Below are positions 18,139 to 33,338 of a DNA stretch of 64,000 nucleotides, one piece after another. A program made the translations under genes and the position numbers. Source of the DNA: a virus. The notes under the pieces are model-generated. The model had not been told where the DNA came from. It did not search any database and saw only the letters and a list, made by a program, of their open reading frames with translations. Where the stretch lies: positions 1 through 64,000 of IMG/VR virus record IMGVR_UViG_3300023242_000004; one strand, 5' to 3'. Position 1 is the stretch's first letter. The number at the start of each line of letters is the position of its first letter.

Positions 18139-18743
18139 ATTTCTTCTAGTTTATTTTTAAACTCAACACAATTCCATGATGGGTTTAAATCTGTGTAATG
18201 TTTTTCAATATTGCTTTTATAAATCACCCCTTGAAAATCAGATAGGGAATCCACTTTTGTATTGTGACCAATAACCTCTAAAGGTATATAAAATTCAGCG
18301 CATAATTTTTTAACTAGCTTGACGGCCGAATCAAATTGTGTTTGCGTGTGTGGTGCCCAATAACGATAGTTTCGCCATTTTTTTTCAAAAACTTCATTTG
18401 GTTTATTATAAATATTACCAATCCAAGTAATAAATTCTTTTTTTTCTTCGTCTTTTATTAACCAACCATCATTTTCCAAAAGAATTACTATTGATTTGGA
18501 ATCTTGTTCCGTTTTACCAAAAAAATTAGAATAATGTTTTGGGTCAAAATGATTATAAATAACACCAGCCGAATTTATAGTAAACGCAGCTGTTTTTTTG
18601 TAATTTCCATTGTATCTATTTTGCCATCCAATAACATGTTTCATATCATGATTAAAGGTACTACCTAAAACTATTTGAGTTTTTATACTATCAATAGGTA
18701 CGTAATTGTTTTTACTTAAAATATAATCTTTATTAATATTCAT
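18135..18743 (-). CDS. N-acetylmuramoyl-L-alanine amidase-like protein, apparently degenerate
   Basis: Amidase_2-like layout (QIVL, FTI...G.IY, SIVILLEN, Q..SAVKLV..LC..F.IP, TDLNP); Zn-ligand His positions not evident. Confidence 0.55.
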   Translation of the reverse strand: MNINKDYILSKNNYVPIDSIKTQIVLGSTFNHDMKHVIGWQNRYNGNYKKTAAFTINSAGVIYNHFDPKHYSNFFGKTEQDSKSIVILLENDGWLIKDEEKKEFITWIGNIYNKPNEVFEKKWRNYRYWAPHTQTQFDSAVKLVKKLCAEFYIPLEVIGHNTKVDSLSDFQGVIYKSNIEKHYTDLNPSWNCVEFKNKLEEI

Positions 18744-19915
18744 TAATCACGTCTAAAAATAACTTTATTGTTATCACCATCTTTAACTATCTTATTAGAA
18801 CCAATTCTTTCCACCATATTAGTAGTTTTTGGTTCTGGAACTTTAACAGAAAAACCTCTGTTTCCTTCTTTTATCTCTTTGATATCTTCTAACTCTATTT
18901 TACCCTTGACAGCAATTGGTTCTTTTTTAACGGTTTTTATTTCAATTTCTTCATTTACTCCCTCATTTACTCCCTCACCTTTTAATTTTTCAACAAGGGT
19001 TTCTAGGATGTCTTTTGTCGAATCTTTTTTAGTCGCAGTTTTTTTTAAAATATTTTTAAGACAGTCTAACCATTTTTTTTCAGTAACTTTTTTATTTTTA
19101 ACTACTTTTGTTTCTTCTTCAATAACGTGACCTGTTTCCAATATGAACACTTTATTTGTTATAAGAATTAAAGCGACAGCCAATGGGTCAAACACAAATA
19201 TTAATAATAATATCATATAGTTAACCACATTAGACATAGGAACACCTGTAAGTTCAGATATATACTTCAATGGCCCAACTTCACCAGCAATAGCGTTATT
19301 GGCCTTCTTTTCAAGCCCTTTTACATTATATGAACTGATAGAATCAGACAACACAGAATTTTTAACGTTTAATTCGTCAATATCTAGTGTTAATTTTTGA
19401 ATCTCTGAATTAGCAGACGCAATATCACTTCTAACACTATTTCTAGCTCTATTTGAGGTTGAACCATCCAAACGTGATTCTTGGTTAGTTCTAAGATTTG
19501 ATAATTGGTCTAAACGTTTTGTTTTACCATCAATAATTTTTTGGTTATCAGCTAGACTTTTTTCAAACACTATTTTTTTACCGTTTAACACACCTAATTC
19601 ACCTTCATGTATTTCTAATTTATTAGCTGTTTTTTGGTAAGCGTTTGAAAGAAAACCATAAATACCAACAGATGTGATTATCATAAGAACCCCAACACTA
19701 ATAGTTAAATATATTCTAAGACCTTTGGCTAGCTTATCCCAGTATGTATGTAGCGCTGTCGTGGTAACAATCTTACCCAATTCTAGTATTGATGCCATTA
19801 TAATGACAGCAGTACTAGCACCCGCAAATAATTGACTAAGCCCAAAAATTGAAAACCCAGCACTAGTAATAGCTATTATAATAGCTGTAATTAACATAAT
19901 ATATTTAAAATTCAT
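18743..19915 (-). CDS. multi-TM coiled-coil membrane protein
   Basis: 3 N-terminal TMs, coiled coil, GEVGPLKY, TM with IFVFDPLAV. Confidence 0.8.
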   Translation of the reverse strand: MNFKYIMLITAIIIAITSAGFSIFGLSQLFAGASTAVIIMASILELGKIVTTTALHTYWDKLAKGLRIYLTISVGVLMIITSVGIYGFLSNAYQKTANKLEIHEGELGVLNGKKIVFEKSLADNQKIIDGKTKRLDQLSNLRTNQESRLDGSTSNRARNSVRSDIASANSEIQKLTLDIDELNVKNSVLSDSISSYNVKGLEKKANNAIAGEVGPLKYISELTGVPMSNVVNYMILLLIFVFDPLAVALILITNKVFILETGHVIEEETKVVKNKKVTEKKWLDCLKNILKKTATKKDSTKDILETLVEKLKGEGVNEGVNEEIEIKTVKKEPIAVKGKIELEDIKEIKEGNRGFSVKVPEPKTTNMVERIGSNKIVKDGDNNKVIFRRD

Positions 19916-20820
19916 TTTTTATATTTTTTTTTTAATTTATTAATAACGTTTTCGTCATACTTTATAATTAACAATTGTATTTTGTTATTTTCACAAAACT
20001 TTAATTTAATATTATCATTAATTAATTGTTGTTTAAATTTTTCACTACCACCAAAAAATTTAAAGCTTTTATAGTGTTGTTCACCATTAAATTCAATACA
20101 CATATTATAATCTGGTAAATAAAAATCAAATGGTAATGGGTATTTATTTATACAATTATTAAATCTATATTGTGGTGTAAAATTAATTTTATTATTTTCT
20201 AAAAAAACCCTTATCTGTTTTTCACCTTTTGATTCTTTACAAATAGGACAACCATTTTTTCGATTACAATGTTTAATAAATGATTGATTAAATACTCCGT
20301 GAAGTGAACAAATTATTTTTACTTTATTTTTATAATTAACATAATTAACTAATGAATAATCATATTTATCACCATGAACTAATTTAGCTTTATTTATAAA
20401 ATCTTGTGTCGACATCTTTTCAGTACCACCACATTTTAAACAACCATTACCTTGTAAATGATTATTTGGTGTTTGTTCAAATACCCCATGTATTGGGCAA
20501 ATTATTTTAATTTTAGTTTTATTATTTACATATTCAACTAATGAATAATCATAAAAATTATTATGTTTAACATTCATCCTATCAACAACTGTTCTTTTGT
20601 GATTATTAATATTTTTTGTATGGTAATTATCACATTTTAAACAACCACTTTTACCATACAAATGTTTATCTGGTGTTTTTTCAAATACCCCATGTATTGG
20701 GCAAATTATTTTAATTTTAGTTTTATTATTTACATATTCAACTAATGAATAATCGTATTTATCACCATAAATTATTTTAGAATCATTAATGAATTCTTCT
20801 TTAGTTTTTTTCTTTCCCAT
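19912..20820 (-). CDS. free-standing putative homing endonuclease (three DUF723-like Zn repeats plus Vsr/PD-(D/E)XK-like domain)
   Basis: YDYSLVEY...IICPIHG.F...H..G.GC..C x3; LPFDFYLPDYNMCIEFNGEQHY. Confidence 0.85.
   Translation of the reverse strand: MGKKKTKEEFINDSKIIYGDKYDYSLVEYVNNKTKIKIICPIHGVFEKTPDKHLYGKSGCLKCDNYHTKNINNHKRTVVDRMNVKHNNFYDYSLVEYVNNKTKIKIICPIHGVFEQTPNNHLQGNGCLKCGGTEKMSTQDFINKAKLVHGDKYDYSLVNYVNYKNKVKIICSLHGVFNQSFIKHCNRKNGCPICKESKGEKQIRVFLENNKINFTPQYRFNNCINKYPLPFDFYLPDYNMCIEFNGEQHYKSFKFFGGSEKFKQQLINDNIKLKFCENNKIQLLIIKYDENVINKLKKKYKK
20476..20754. repeat. 75-nt identical direct repeat (20476-20550 and 20680-20754) inside the endonuclease
   Basis: Read directly from sequence. 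Confidence 0.85.
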
Positions 20821-20863
20821 ATTAATAAATATATAGCAACCACAAAAAATTACTTAAATTATT

Positions 20864-20941
20864 TTAAACCGAAAAGTATGCGGCACACCCAGCAACAGAT
20901 AACGCTAAAAATAACATTATATATCTAAACTTAATTTTCAT
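20864..20941 (-). pseudogene. orphan 5' fragment paralogous to the N-terminus of the 18743..19915 membrane protein
   Basis: MKIKFRYIMLFLALSVAGCAAYFSV* versus MNFKYIMLITAIIIAITSAGFSIFG; own TATTTATA box upstream. Confidence 0.75.
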
Positions 20942-20976
20942 ACTTTTTTGTTTTATTATAAATATACTAATTGCAA

Positions 20977-20999
20977 AAAAAGGGTTCTAAAACCCTTTT
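20977..20999. terminator. intrinsic terminator after the sigma gene
   Basis: AAAAGGGTT-CTAA-AACCCTTTT. Confidence 0.65.
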
Positions 21000-21001
21000 C
21001 T

Positions 21002-21832
21002 TTATTCATTCATTAATATTCGTAAACCTTGTGCGTTATGTCTTAATTTTCGTATAGCCTTCTCCTTTATTTGACGAATTCTTTCTTTCGTCAACCCGTA
21101 ATTTTCACCGATTGCCTCCAAAGTCATTGACTCACAGTCTGTATTTATACCAAAATAACACTCGATTATCATTCGTTCTCTGTTATCTAAGACATCTAAA
21201 ATTTTAGCTAACCCATCTTTTATTTTTTCATTTATTTCTAACTCATCAACATCAATTGATTCAGATGGAATCAATTCTATTAACTCATCACCGTCTTCAT
21301 TTATTAATTGGTTTAGAGAAGTTGCTCTTGGAAAATTTAAAGTTGCAGCTATTTGACTATCACTTTTTAAAATCTCACCAAAAACTGGTTGTCTTTCATT
21401 ATCATTTTCAAATCTAGAAATTTCTTTATTCAATTTTGTTATCTTATTGATAATGTTAGCTGGTAATCTAACCACCCTAGCGTTATCATTAAGGCCTTGT
21501 ATAATAGATTGTTTAATCCACCAAACAGCATATGATATAAACCTAAAACCTCTATTATGGTCAAACCTACTCGCTGCTTTAATTAAACCGTAATTACCTT
21601 CACTAATCAAATCAGATAAAGCCAAGCCTTGATTTTGATATTCTTTTGCGATTGAAATGACAAACTTTAAATTTGCTTTTACTAATTCTTCGGTGGCTTT
21701 AGTGTCACCATCTTTAATTCTTTTCGCTAAATTAACTTCCTCTTCTGGTGTTAATAACACCGATTTTCTTACTTCCTTAAAATATTTTGCGATGCTATCA
21801 TCTGTTTCAAAATTTGTAAACCTTTTGTCCAT
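21002..21832 (-). CDS. RNA polymerase sigma-70 family factor (RpoD/RpoS-like)
   Basis: ANLKFVISIAKEY, DLISEGNYGLIKAA..FD...GFRFISYAVWWIKQ, TLEAIG...GLTKERIRQI. Confidence 0.95.
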   Translation of the reverse strand: MDKRFTNFETDDSIAKYFKEVRKSVLLTPEEEVNLAKRIKDGDTKATEELVKANLKFVISIAKEYQNQGLALSDLISEGNYGLIKAASRFDHNRGFRFISYAVWWIKQSIIQGLNDNARVVRLPANIINKITKLNKEISRFENDNERQPVFGEILKSDSQIAATLNFPRATSLNQLINEDGDELIELIPSESIDVDELEINEKIKDGLAKILDVLDNRERMIIECYFGINTDCESMTLEAIGENYGLTKERIRQIKEKAIRKLRHNAQGLRILMNE

Positions 21833-22497: not shown

Positions 22498-25308
22498 CTA
22501 TTTTACGCTAATACTAGACAGATTATCTTTTTTAATAACTGTAATAATATTATTTGACCAATCCTTCACCAAATCATTGTGCGTAATAAAGAAAACAATT
22601 TCATACATATCTTTTATTTTATCAAAGAGATTTTTCAATTTTTCTAAATTTTCTGATGCCACTTTACCTAATACTTCATCAAAAGTAATAAAGTTAGGCA
22701 TAGGTAAAGTAGATAATTTACCTAACACTGCTCTAAGTGCTAAACTAGCCGCTGTTTTCTCTAACCCAGAACCAGATTTTAGTAATTTAGATATACCATC
22801 TTTAACCATTAAAAATTGGACATCGTTCTTATCATTCATAGATATCTCAATATCGAAATCTACAACATCTTCTAACAATCTTTGTGCTTCAGAATTAATA
22901 ATCGGTAAAACAGAACGCAAAACTAATTTACTAATACCTTTCTTACCAACCAACTCGATATAAATCTTGAAAATCTTATCAACTTCTTCTTCTTTTTTTA
23001 TCGTTTCTATTAATTTTGTTTTAGTGATAACACTAGTTTTATTGGTTTGTATATCTGCTTGAACCCTTTGTATGTTTATAATTGTTTGGTCTTTTGAATA
23101 TTCGCAAACCGCTAATTTTGTTTTAACGTCGATAACTTTAATCTCTATTTTTTTATTAAACTCAATAGCATGCAAATTAAGCTGATATTTTTTAAGGTCA
23201 TTTTTCTTTGCGATTACATCATTTCTCAACGAACCCATTTCAACTTCCATTCTATCAACATTTAACTCTAGTTTATTTTTGTTATCAATTAGCAATTTGT
23301 TTTCATTTAAAGTAGTTAATTTAGCAGATAACGAATTTAACGTTTCATCAACACCCAAAACTTCTTTTCTTAAATTTTCTATTTCCAATTCATGTTTAGT
23401 TATGTGTAGTGAGTTATCCACATCATCTAATTTTCTATTACACGATTGACAAACACCACCAGCAATCAAACCAGTCACAACTTTTTCAAGCCTTGTTATC
23501 TCAGCCTCTTTTAACGCTTTATTTGTAGTGTTTACATTAAAATCTTTAGAGAATTCTAAATGTTTATCTTCATCAAAATCAATTTCACCAATTGCGGTTA
23601 TCTTAACTTTTAACCCAGCAACCTTTTCTTTAAATTCAACACCTTTATCAATTAATTTATCAACTTCACTTTCTAATTTTTCTGGGTTAAGTTCTGAAAT
23701 GGTAACGTCGATTTTTTCTTTGCTATCGATTAAATCGTCTTTACTATCAGTAAGTGTTTGGATTTCAGATTTAGTGTTACCCAATTTTTGTTTTAACTCA
23801 ACATCTAATTCTTCACCCAAAATAATTTTATCATTATGGTCATCTATTTCTTCACCTAAAGTAATAACATCATATTCATTAGATTTTTTCTTCCTAGCAA
23901 ATTCATTATACATTTCTCTAGCCGCTTTTTCTTTAAGTTCTAGTATTTCTAAACCAATAAGCCTAGTTAAAATTTTTCCAGATTCAGTTGTAGTCAAACC
24001 AATAAGGTCGTCTAAGTTTTTTTCTGTTGCCAACACTAACATCTCAAAATCTTTTTCACTACCAATAGTTTCTTTAAGCCTTCTAGTTGTTTGAGTAGCG
24101 TCTTCTTCATTTAACGCTTCTTCTTCACCATCTGGAAGTATTCTGTAGTAGTTAACTCTATTTGTAACAGTCCAACCACCATCTTTTTTAGCCGTGCGTC
24201 TCATTTTACGCTCAATGATAGTCTCTTCACCCTCAATTTCAATCATACCTCTTACTACTAGTTCGTTCTTATTACTGTAGGTGTTGAAGATTTGTTCGTT
24301 TGTGTCTGTTTTTGTTGTGTTACCATGTAACAAAAATTTAATAGCGTCAATAGTTAAAGTTGTATTATGAGAAACTATACCATTGGAATAATATTGGTGG
24401 ACTTCATCTACTTGAATATCATATAGAGTATCTTTGAAATCCATCAACTTAATAGATTTAACATTAGATATTCCATTAACTGTTTGAATCCGCTCACCAA
24501 CTTCTACTTCTTTTAAAACGACAAATTCACCATCTTCTTTTTTAAGCCTGTGATAGTCAGCGCCCTCAACATATTTTCCATCTTCAAGCTCACAGCGATA
24601 TACATCCGCATTCTCTTCAGTGATACCACACCAAGTAATATCTTTATACCCGTAAGGTGTATTAACCTTAAAACCTAAATCACCATATTTTTCATATATC
24701 GAATTTAACTCACCGATTGTTATTTCGTCTGGTAAAACCCCTATTTTTTTACCTATTTCTTCCTTATCAAATTGTATATTTATCCGAGTGTCAGACCTAA
24801 CACATTTACCACCTTGATTAGCTGGAATTGAATTTACTATAGTTAAACCTTTTAATTTGCTAAAAGGAACGTAATTACTTTCACCAAAGGATAAGAAATT
24901 ATCTATCATAAGCCATTTAATTGACCAACTTCTATGTGTTGTTTGCGTTAAATCAACATTTAATTCACCGTTTACCTTGTCATCTAAAGCAACAATACGG
25001 TTGAAATCAACATTCTTACCATCTCTAGTAATTAACTCTTTCATAAGCGCTCTTTGATAGTTAACATCCATGATGTTCTCCATACCAGCACCAGTGATTT
25101 CAATGGCATCACCATCGGTATTGAACCTAACTGGTCTATAAACAACCGTTATATTATTTTTTTGAACACCGTACTTGTTAGCTATATAGTTTCTAATCTT
25201 ATTTTTGGCCTCTTTGCTGTAGTTGTGTGGTTGGTCATCCCAATATACTTTAATCTTGGAATACGGTGATATTAATGTGTTATCTAATGTATCTGTTTTA
25301 TTCGCCAT
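22498..25308 (-). CDS. sbcC: SbcC/Rad50 (gp46-like) ATPase with mini-intein
   Basis: IDNFLSFG, Walker A NQGGK|TT, coiled coil with CQSC Zn-hook, signature SGLEK, Walker B FITFDE, ITHN. Confidence 0.92.
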   Translation of the reverse strand: MANKTDTLDNTLISPYSKIKVYWDDQPHNYSKEAKNKIRNYIANKYGVQKNNITVVYRPVRFNTDGDAIEITGAGMENIMDVNYQRALMKELITRDGKNVDFNRIVALDDKVNGELNVDLTQTTHRSWSIKWLMIDNFLSFGESNYVPFSKLKGLTIVNSIPANQGGKCVRSDTRINIQFDKEEIGKKIGVLPDEITIGELNSIYEKYGDLGFKVNTPYGYKDITWCGITEENADVYRCELEDGKYVEGADYHRLKKEDGEFVVLKEVEVGERIQTVNGISNVKSIKLMDFKDTLYDIQVDEVHQYYSNGIVSHNTTLTIDAIKFLLHGNTTKTDTNEQIFNTYSNKNELVVRGMIEIEGEETIIERKMRRTAKKDGGWTVTNRVNYYRILPDGEEEALNEEDATQTTRRLKETIGSEKDFEMLVLATEKNLDDLIGLTTTESGKILTRLIGLEILELKEKAAREMYNEFARKKKSNEYDVITLGEEIDDHNDKIILGEELDVELKQKLGNTKSEIQTLTDSKDDLIDSKEKIDVTISELNPEKLESEVDKLIDKGVEFKEKVAGLKVKITAIGEIDFDEDKHLEFSKDFNVNTTNKALKEAEITRLEKVVTGLIAGGVCQSCNRKLDDVDNSLHITKHELEIENLRKEVLGVDETLNSLSAKLTTLNENKLLIDNKNKLELNVDRMEVEMGSLRNDVIAKKNDLKKYQLNLHAIEFNKKIEIKVIDVKTKLAVCEYSKDQTIINIQRVQADIQTNKTSVITKTKLIETIKKEEEVDKIFKIYIELVGKKGISKLVLRSVLPIINSEAQRLLEDVVDFDIEISMNDKNDVQFLMVKDGISKLLKSGSGLEKTAASLALRAVLGKLSTLPMPNFITFDEVLGKVASENLEKLKNLFDKIKDMYEIVFFITHNDLVKDWSNNIITVIKKDNLSSISVK
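24364..24804 (-). mobile_element. cis mini-intein (147 aa, no endonuclease) in the SbcC Walker A
   Basis: GGK|CVRSDT...GADYHRL...LYDIQVDEVHQYYSNGIVSHN|T. Confidence 0.92.
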
Positions 25309-32459: not shown

Positions 32460-33119
32460 TTACCTAGGCCAAACACTTATTTTATTCATATAACCTATAG
32501 CACAAGCATAGGCATCACTCATGTCGAAATTTTCTTTTTTTAGTTTATTTTTTTTATCTAAAATCCATTTTATTTGCGGTTCTAAATCACATACATTTTC
32601 GAAAATCACCATTTTCTTGTCAACATCAAATGGGTAACCCCCAAACAACACAGGAGCGTTTTTAGCTATTTGTTTATCAGCTAAAGGTGTTCCATCTTTT
32701 TTTGCTTTTCTAACGACCATAAGTTCTGGAAATGCGTATTTACGTGCATCGTAAGAAGATATGAACTCTGGTACAATACCTAAAGCATCGTAAACGGATT
32801 TTGAAATCATCCCGTTAAACCTTAATAAGGTCGCAATTGTGTAAACATTGTTAGACTGAAGTAGTGGTTCTTCGATAACAACCCTAGTAATACCAAAATC
32901 ACTATAGTGTGAAAGAAACTCATTTTCAAATATTTCAATTTTCCTAAACAATTCTTCCGTTTTTGTTTCTGGTTTTGGTTTAACTTTTGGAGATACATGG
33001 TGTAAGAGTTTTAATTTACCCTTGTTACCCATATCTTCAAATAATGAAATACCAATGGTTGAAGTTGATACATCCAGACTTAAAAGAAATTCTGGTTCTT
33101 TTTCTATTTTATTTTTCAT
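32460..33119 (-). CDS. RuvC-like Holliday junction resolvase (start reassigned to ATG 33119)
   Basis: LSLDVSTSTIG, VVIEEP, DMSDAYA. Confidence 0.8.
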   Translation of the reverse strand: MKNKIEKEPEFLLSLDVSTSTIGISLFEDMGNKGKLKLLHHVSPKVKPKPETKTEELFRKIEIFENEFLSHYSDFGITRVVIEEPLLQSNNVYTIATLLRFNGMISKSVYDALGIVPEFISSYDARKYAFPELMVVRKAKKDGTPLADKQIAKNAPVLFGGYPFDVDKKMVIFENVCDLEPQIKWILDKKNKLKKENFDMSDAYACAIGYMNKISVWPR

Positions 33120-33338
33120 AATTTTTATATTTCCATTTAAAACCATATGCTGTTTTTGCAAACCCACCACAACACATTCTTATACTTTTTGCTGGTATAT
33201 TTAATACTTCGCTAGCTGTAATTGAACAACTGAATTCGTTAATTAAATTATTATCCATATCAAATTGTTGTACTAATTTTGCTTTCGGGTGTTTTTCACC
33301 AGTATTAACGCCAATAAAAATTCTGGTTCTTTAATCAT
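33109..33338 (-). pseudogene. orphan resolvase 5' end fused out of frame to a NUMOD1-type endonuclease remnant
   Basis: ATG 33338 gives MIKEPEFLLAL; a second frame gives GEKHPKAKLVQQFDMDNNLINEFSCSITASEVLNIPAKSIRMCCGGFAKTAYGFKWKYKNYEK*, similar to the C-terminus of the 59075 endonuclease. Confidence 0.8.

Follow-up and report, generated by a model that had tools for sequence, protein, structure and literature searches.

A homing-endonuclease cassette that probably brings a substitute 5′ end to a jumbo-phage membrane-protein gene

The 64,000 nucleotides (nt) of viral DNA analysed here (positions 1 to 64,000 of IMG/VR virus record IMGVR_UViG_3300023242_000004, hereafter the window) carry, on the minus strand, a membrane-protein gene, a displaced copy of the 5′ end of that gene and, between the two, an endonuclease gene. 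Read along this strand, the arrangement begins with an open reading frame (ORF) of 25 codons closed by a TAA stop (20864-20941), hereafter the orphan. It is followed by a 43-nt spacer, which holds the left junction of the insert (20821-20863), by a free-standing gene for an endonuclease of 302 amino acids (aa; 19912-20820) and by the gene for a membrane protein of 390 aa (18743-19915), whose ATG overlaps the TGA of the endonuclease gene as ATGA. Codons 1-23 of the membrane gene (19847-19915) form a replacement N-terminus, referred to as type B, while codons 24-390 (18743-19846) constitute the resident body. An initial annotation of this DNA had noted the short ORF ahead of the endonuclease and had described the full gene as starting, through the ATGA overlap, with a diverged version of the same peptide. 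Both features are present, the orphan and the N-terminus of the full gene, which would be the expressed one, being identical at about 10 of 23 residues. Very probably, a homing-endonuclease cassette with a foreign type B start occupies the 5′ end of this conserved jumbo-phage gene.

The orphan corresponds to codons 1-25 of the native (type A) membrane gene. About 60 syntenic relatives, drawn from IMG/VR and metagenomes, carry this gene without an insert. The orphan is 76-92% identical to the starts of these endonuclease-free homologues across all 25 residues (tblastn, E 1e-8 to 1e-12), and over 58 distinct native N-termini its identity averages 80% and reaches 96% at most. Shuffled versions of the orphan reach a mean of 27% and a maximum of 50% against the same set. 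The initial annotation had proposed to compare the orphan and the expressed copy with endonuclease-free N-termini, and had expected the orphan to be the closer; it is, the expressed N-terminus reaching a mean identity of 45%. The displaced copy is thus nearer to the relatives than the inserted copy, as in an end replacement, and it lies well above the level of random peptides, which had been named as the outcome that would speak against the idea. With P0004, among the closest relatives by protein body, 24 of the 25 orphan residues are identical. In the relatives, the native start consists of a strongly conserved segment that runs to ...VAGCAAYFSV and continues with WGLSQLFAGAS. The break in the window falls after native codon 25, just before the invariant GLSQLFAG motif, in agreement with the earlier placement of the insertion about 25 codons into the gene.

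The native N-terminus also contains a lipobox-like VAGC (20885-20896 in the orphan) after a K-rich hydrophobic leader. Because the Cys of this motif is replaced by T or S in some relatives and is missing from all type B N-termini, the lipobox is probably not essential.

The expressed membrane protein is a chimera with a sharp boundary between the type B start and the resident body. Its residues 1-23 match P0004 at 10 of 23 positions (about 43%), residues 24-58 are identical to those of P0004 but for one W>F change, and the reading frame is unbroken from the replacement ATG through the core of the gene. Other homologues with type B N-termini of 22-23 residues were found in a search limited to residues 1-40, and the replacement in the window is 48-65% identical to the type B N-termini of other lineages. 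In a maximum-likelihood tree of the protein body, type B occurs at four places, namely a clade of six proteins, P0112, P0251, and the window together with a sister genome (IMGVR_UViG_3300037294_000405). The window and sister proteins nest within the type A group P0003-P0005 with a support of 100, and the constraint of all type B proteins to one clade is rejected (delta log-likelihood 349, approximately unbiased test p = 2e-53). In addition, the guanine-plus-cytosine (GC) content of the replacement (21.7%) is close to that of the endonuclease gene (21.0%), while that of the orphan (30.8%) is close to that of the gene body (31.1%). From these comparisons, the replacement N-terminus is of foreign origin. 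The proposal of the initial annotation that the insert carries a recoded N-terminus therefore needs rewording: a replacement is carried, but 'recoded' is inexact, the segment being a foreign type B allele that differs at the protein level and not a synonymous rewrite of the native one.

The membrane-protein family is very large, with 6087 matches, nearly all in phage-like contigs. The protein itself matches no Pfam or PHROG family, and the protein atlas places only viral hypothetical proteins near it. The other type B proteins were not found in viral contigs, metagenome contigs, genome contigs or the phage collection. When IMG/VR was scanned with degenerate DNA patterns, for type B starts and for a type A start cut short by a stop at codon 26, only the sister contig was returned. 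Ahead of GLSQ, FSIF takes the place of FSVW in some type A alleles that lack an endonuclease (L005:3989-4110, P0261, P0262, P0264 and P0250), and the L005 codons nearly match those of the replacement copy in the window (TCA ATT TTT GG. CTT AGT). These FSIF alleles may be partial conversion scars or resistance polymorphisms.

The orphan, the endonuclease and the replacement start are found together only in the window and in the sister contig, against about 60 empty syntenic loci. This sporadic presence at one site with conserved flanks is the distribution expected of a homing endonuclease. The sister contig has the same order of orphan, endonuclease and membrane gene, and an assembly artefact is ruled out by the presence of the same structure in two independently assembled contigs that are 6% diverged. 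The background divergence between the two is 6.1% over 7552 aligned columns; on the minus strand of the window, however, a tract of 1076 nt (19806-20881) contains 1 mismatch where about 66 would be expected. The only mismatch lies at 20820, where the endonuclease starts with ATG in the window and with GTG in the sister. The tract begins at codon 21 of the orphan, ends at codon 36 of the membrane gene and includes everything between, namely spacer, endonuclease and replacement N-terminus; its near identity indicates that it is a recently exchanged unit between the two genomes. Together, the near-identical tract and the discordance between type B and the body tree form the signature of recent gene conversion with flanking DNA. 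Over the orphan, the window and the sister differ by three synonymous and zero non-synonymous changes; synonymous-only differences upstream of the tract fit the retention by each genome of its own native codons.

The 302-aa protein comprises three DUF723 zinc-ribbon repeats and a C-terminal Vsr-like nuclease domain (EDxHD, I-Bth0305I-type). Pfam recognises DUF723 and DUF4379 zinc-ribbon repeats in three copies, and the protein belongs to PHROG 559/9084 (endonuclease families); DUF723 has been regarded as a module by which phage homing endonucleases bind DNA (PMC10448857). In the C-terminal part of about 110 residues (112 searched), no Pfam match was found. The AlphaFold model has a pLDDT (predicted local distance difference test) of 88, and Foldseek aligned it to chains A and B of 3r3p, the catalytic domain of I-Bth0305I, with target-normalised template-modelling (TM) scores of 0.68-0.69, a probability of 1.00 and 21-22% identity, and to Vsr (1cw0/1vsr) with a TM score of 0.48. 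The E-values of these matches are only about 0.01, the query having been the whole 302-aa model. The predicted model thus has a Vsr-like nuclease fold. E200, D232 and D269 do not vary across 20 homologues, and H249 hardly does; by motif, the four are candidate catalytic residues. The 17-residue spacing of D232 and H249 equals that of D196 and H213 in I-Bth0305I (PMC3239194). Searches against the chains of the PDB returned nothing with phmmer at E <= 1, nor with a 20-sequence profile at E <= 10, so that the placement in the EDxHD family is one of fold and motif only. The endonuclease ORF is intact, and the protein would be an active nuclease. Its family is huge in metagenomes, with one copy in this genome; its nearest homologues in IMG/VR (L050 and L051, 52-53% identity) have no duplicated gene ends beside them.

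The initial annotation had also reported a 'TATTTATA box' belonging to the orphan. This is a real conserved element: the motif TATATTTAT lies upstream of the orphan at 20958-20966 (minus strand), where it represents the native upstream signal of the membrane gene, and ATATTTAT is conserved 5-25 nt upstream of the membrane-gene ATG in nearly all endonuclease-free relatives. A second TATATTTAT lies in the spacer (20825-20833, minus strand), 5 nt before the ATG of the endonuclease. The ATATTTAT/TATATTTAT element would act as a promoter. A gapped, collinear alignment places the spacer itself against native codons 27-36; for most relatives, comparison with shuffles gives p = 0.001-0.05. The spacer probably contains native codons 26 to about 36 in decayed form. 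It contains a T-run, then about 9 nt, then TATATTTAT, and in this order it also resembles the region of terminator tail and promoter before the membrane gene of the relatives. Because the spacer resembles both the native codons and the intergenic region of the relatives, the left junction is given as an interval: it may lie within 20866-20835, with a native remnant that reaches to about codon 29-36.

These observations suggest a mechanism, of which we infer the nuclease activity, the target site, the immunity and the transcription and translation signals. The cassette comprises the promoter-like ATATTTAT motif, the 302-aa endonuclease and the 23-codon type B N-terminus. The type B segment joins the resident gene in frame just before GLSQLFAG, and the type A start is stranded upstream as the orphan. 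Since the type B start is in frame and has its own ATG, a full-length membrane protein is possible without an intron, an intein or a bypass. The enzyme would cut uninterrupted type A alleles between about native codons 21 and 38, an interval taken from the limits of the conversion tract. Nucleotides 79-111, which fall within it, are the most conserved DNA of the 5′ region of the gene (mean column conservation 0.89-0.93). The break would then be repaired from a cassette-bearing genome, with the orphan and the DNA upstream of it as left arm and the gene body as right arm. A genome that bears the cassette would be immune, its target being split and both junction-proximal flanks being unlike the native sequence: after the orphan, TGGGGT is replaced by TAAAATAAT, and before GLSQ in the expressed copy, type B codons stand in place of the native codons. 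Expression would plausibly depend on the native ATATTTAT element and on the copy before the endonuclease, and translation of the membrane gene would be coupled to that of the endonuclease through the ATGA overlap; coupling by start/stop overlap has been discussed for T4 mobE (PMC2988022).

Several points weigh against this interpretation. Both the proposed target site and the proposed resistance of the replacement allele to cutting are deductions from sequence. The 9-mer of the promoter motif shows no significant enrichment over the window, with 13 occurrences where 6.3 are expected, and a generic sigma-70 scan gave more sites in shuffles than in the real sequence. With a length of only 69 nt, the replacement offers few bases for its GC content, which is weak evidence when taken alone. 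The six type B proteins of the clade form a single lineage, in which type B could have been inherited vertically. The W that is lost in both window copies is still present in several type B N-termini, and its loss therefore cannot by itself confer resistance. Finally, for P0112, P0106, P0241-P0246, P0251 and P0253-P0258, the sole hint of a link with an endonuclease is the pair P0246/P0143: P0246, a type B membrane protein, and P0143, an endonuclease homologue (55% identical), both list a longest contig of 30596 nt and are probably on the same contig.

The strongest alternative, which we hold to be rather less than evenly probable, is that the orphan is an accidental by-product. The endonuclease of the donor would have been intergenic, between the promoter and a natural type B gene, and a single repair, illegitimate at its left junction, would have carried promoter, endonuclease and type B start into a type A gene, the replacement being a co-converted flank. 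Free-standing phage endonucleases are usually intergenic and do co-convert flanking markers (PMC2988022), the uniformly type B clade of six proteins could represent the donor lineage, and the sequence before the endonuclease ATG (T-run, about 9 nt, TATATTTAT and a short leader) resembles the terminator tail and promoter region of the relatives. However, the collections searched yielded no orphan-free locus in which a promoter, the endonuclease and a type B gene follow one another. Moreover, such a history differs from the end-replacement cassette in origin only, since the exchanged tract starts inside the tail of the orphan and thus shows the behaviour of a unit. An in-place duplication of the 5′ end, with divergence of the downstream copy and an endonuclease between the copies by chance, would dispense with lateral transfer; it could account for the homology of the two N-termini (about 10 of 23 residues identical) and for the register kept from YIML to GLSQ. 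It is nonetheless very improbable, because the identity of the downstream copy to distant type B N-termini reaches 65%, against 45% to the native type, because the body tree shows type B as polyphyletic, and because the copy shares the low GC content of the endonuclease. Such a history would also require 11 of 16 residues to have changed in a segment nearly invariant in more than 100 homologues, while the next 35 stayed identical but for one W>F, and the closest relatives, P0003-P0005, have no duplication.

It is less plausible still that the insert is removed by a group I intron, an intein or ribosomal bypass, with the orphan as exon 1. Precedents exist, in that endonucleases of the EDxHD family occur in group I introns and beside split inteins (PMC3239194, PMC2677866), and gene 60 of phage T4 uses translational bypass next to MobA (bioRxiv 10.1101/2022.08.31.505936). 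At this locus, however, no Rfam model, group I introns included, matches positions 18500-21300 of the window on either strand at E <= 1. A TAA codon closes the orphan, the endonuclease ORF is delimited by a start and a stop of its own and forms no in-frame fusion with the interrupted gene, and the downstream gene begins at its own ATG with an entire hydrophobic N-terminal segment, which a join with the orphan would duplicate. The gap of about 1 kb is also far above any known bypass length. Intron, intein and bypass were rejected on these grounds, and the view of the initial annotation that no splicing is needed is borne out. As for the orphan itself, it could be a functional small gene under selection, encoding a hydrophobic, lipobox-like peptide of 25 aa or a leader that controls expression of the endonuclease. 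It retains the native promoter-like motif, the ATG and the VAGC, and it is intact in both genomes, where only the three synonymous differences separate the two copies. The same pattern is also expected, however, if each genome kept its own pre-insertion native codons 1-20; no free-standing copy of the peptide occurs in the approximately 60 endonuclease-free relatives, and only 6 residues would follow the Cys in the mature part. A function of this kind is hence improbable, although less so than either duplication in place or splicing.

With an end-replacement cassette as the preferred interpretation, the closest analogue in logic would be the mobile endonuclease ORFs of fungal mitochondria, as the initial annotation had suggested with the opposite gene end in mind. 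These ORFs bring a foreign C-terminus to atp6, atp9, cox2 and nad3, where the end that matches close relatives is the displaced native one (PMC3630166); examples are atp6 of Allomyces macrogynus and atp6, atp9, cox2 and nad3 of Glomus (PMC3630166, citing Paquin et al. 1994). In both systems, a free-standing endonuclease lies in a coding region, with one end of the gene present twice. Of the two copies, the inserted one is diverged and keeps the frame, the displaced one is nearer to close relatives, and a lateral origin is inferred from the discordance between gene end and gene core. The present case would be the mirror image, the 5′ end being replaced here and the 3′ (C-terminal) end there, and the cassette must in consequence supply a start codon and translation signals (i.e., the ATGA overlap and the promoter-like motif). 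Furthermore, the host is a bacteriophage, and the enzyme is Vsr-like (EDxHD) rather than LAGLIDADG or GIY-YIG.

Among phages, the closest analogue is the MobA element of T4, in the genes for the large subunit of topoisomerase II (genes 39 and 60). MobA is likewise a free-standing endonuclease within a coding sequence, neither intron nor intein. It supplies an N-terminal extension that includes HomR, a host-homologous segment that is diverged (67-81% DNA identity) at the nicked site (bioRxiv 10.1101/2022.08.31.505936; PMC2988022). In both cases, the downstream gene receives a new, diverged N-terminal part and close genomes differ by multiple recent insertions. However, the T4 element splits its gene into two required polypeptides, needs a 50-nt bypass and deletes the replaced host segment. 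Here, only a 25-codon relic remains upstream, beside the insert, and the gene downstream is whole and can do without recoding. The nuclease families also differ, MobA being an HNH enzyme.

The enzyme itself resembles I-Bth0305I and the EDxHD family (PMC3239194), including the endonucleases described with 'fractured genes' (PMC2677866), in its predicted fold, its candidate catalytic Glu, Asp, His and Asp residues and its 17-residue Asp-His spacing; members of this family occur in phages and metagenomes (PMC3239194; PMC2677866). The sequence similarity to I-Bth0305I is below HMMER detection, and I-Bth0305I is intron-encoded with NUMOD2/helix-turn-helix modules, while the present enzyme is free-standing with three DUF723 zinc-ribbon repeats. 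Similarly, intronless homing by the Seg and Mob endonucleases of T4 (PMC2988022; PMC2790892) offers free-standing genes, a sporadic distribution among close relatives, co-conversion of flanks and, through start/stop overlap with an adjacent gene, a hint of translational coupling. The T4 genes, in contrast, are normally intergenic and leave no duplicated gene fragment. A literature search found no phage case of a complete 5′-end replacement with a retained orphan, which does not prove that none exists.

A second 5′ duplication lies in the same window at the resolvase gene. At 33109-33338 (minus strand), an orphan start (MIKEPEFLLAL) corresponds to the beginning of the native resolvase in relatives (MEKEPEFLLAL...) and is followed by a C-terminal endonuclease remnant of 49 aa, which ends at the start of the working resolvase gene (33119). 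The same site in the sister contains an intact GIY-YIG endonuclease of 249 aa (L086:762-1511, within the region L086:489-1511). Since this second duplication involves a GIY-YIG enzyme, end replacement recurs in this lineage with unrelated nuclease families. At L086:2160-3126 of the sister, an opposite-strand ORF of 248 aa lies between the 3′ end of the resolvase gene and a further copy, 69% identical, of the final 52 codons of that gene. The ORF, identified by eye only, is a probable HNH endonuclease, and the arrangement looks like a 3′-end replacement in the resolvase gene. It is tempting to suggest, with a confidence a little short of even, that these jumbo phages contain a general and hitherto undescribed class of end-replacement homing cassettes. 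Unrelated nuclease families (Vsr-like at the membrane gene, GIY-YIG and HNH at the resolvase gene) would invade near gene ends, each with a substitute terminus and, for 5′ ends, with start signals. The displaced fragment would serve as a homology arm in later rounds of homing, and type B would be an allele that endonucleases drive across lineages.

The source record is 94.8 kb long, with an estimated completeness of 27%, and the window is AT-rich (30.2% GC). Related contigs reach 360-380 kb; the window is therefore attributed to a jumbo phage. On the minus strand, an ORF of 176 aa and the gene for a sigma-70 family protein (21832-21002) precede a hairpin with a T-run, after which come the orphan, the spacer, the endonuclease and the membrane gene. 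The latter is followed by the gene for an Amidase_2 protein (18743-18135, minus strand). The insert-free loci have the order sigma, membrane gene, amidase, with a gap of about 60 nt between the sigma and membrane genes. In one relative, about 440 nt separate these two genes (L072:4544-4983). Elsewhere in the window, an SbcC/Rad50-like ORF of 936 aa (22498-25308, minus strand) appears, by eye in the translation, to contain a candidate mini-intein of about 150 aa inside Walker A (...NQGGK / C...VSHN / TT...).

To our knowledge, homing endonucleases are thought to enter coding sequence safely only within introns or inteins, or by splitting the gene. The arrangement described here would represent a third route in a phage, in which the element brings a substitute 5′ end, its own start included, for the gene that it interrupts. 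It offers a clean natural example, with dozens of empty-site alleles, a datable exchange tract shared with a sister genome and an allele phylogeny that conflicts with that of the protein body. It also yields a concrete and testable prediction of the target site of an uncharacterised DUF723 and Vsr-like endonuclease. Annotators should be aware that a short 'orphan' ORF next to a phage endonuclease can be the displaced end of a gene. More broadly, endonucleases may drive the replacement of alleles in structural or membrane genes of phages.

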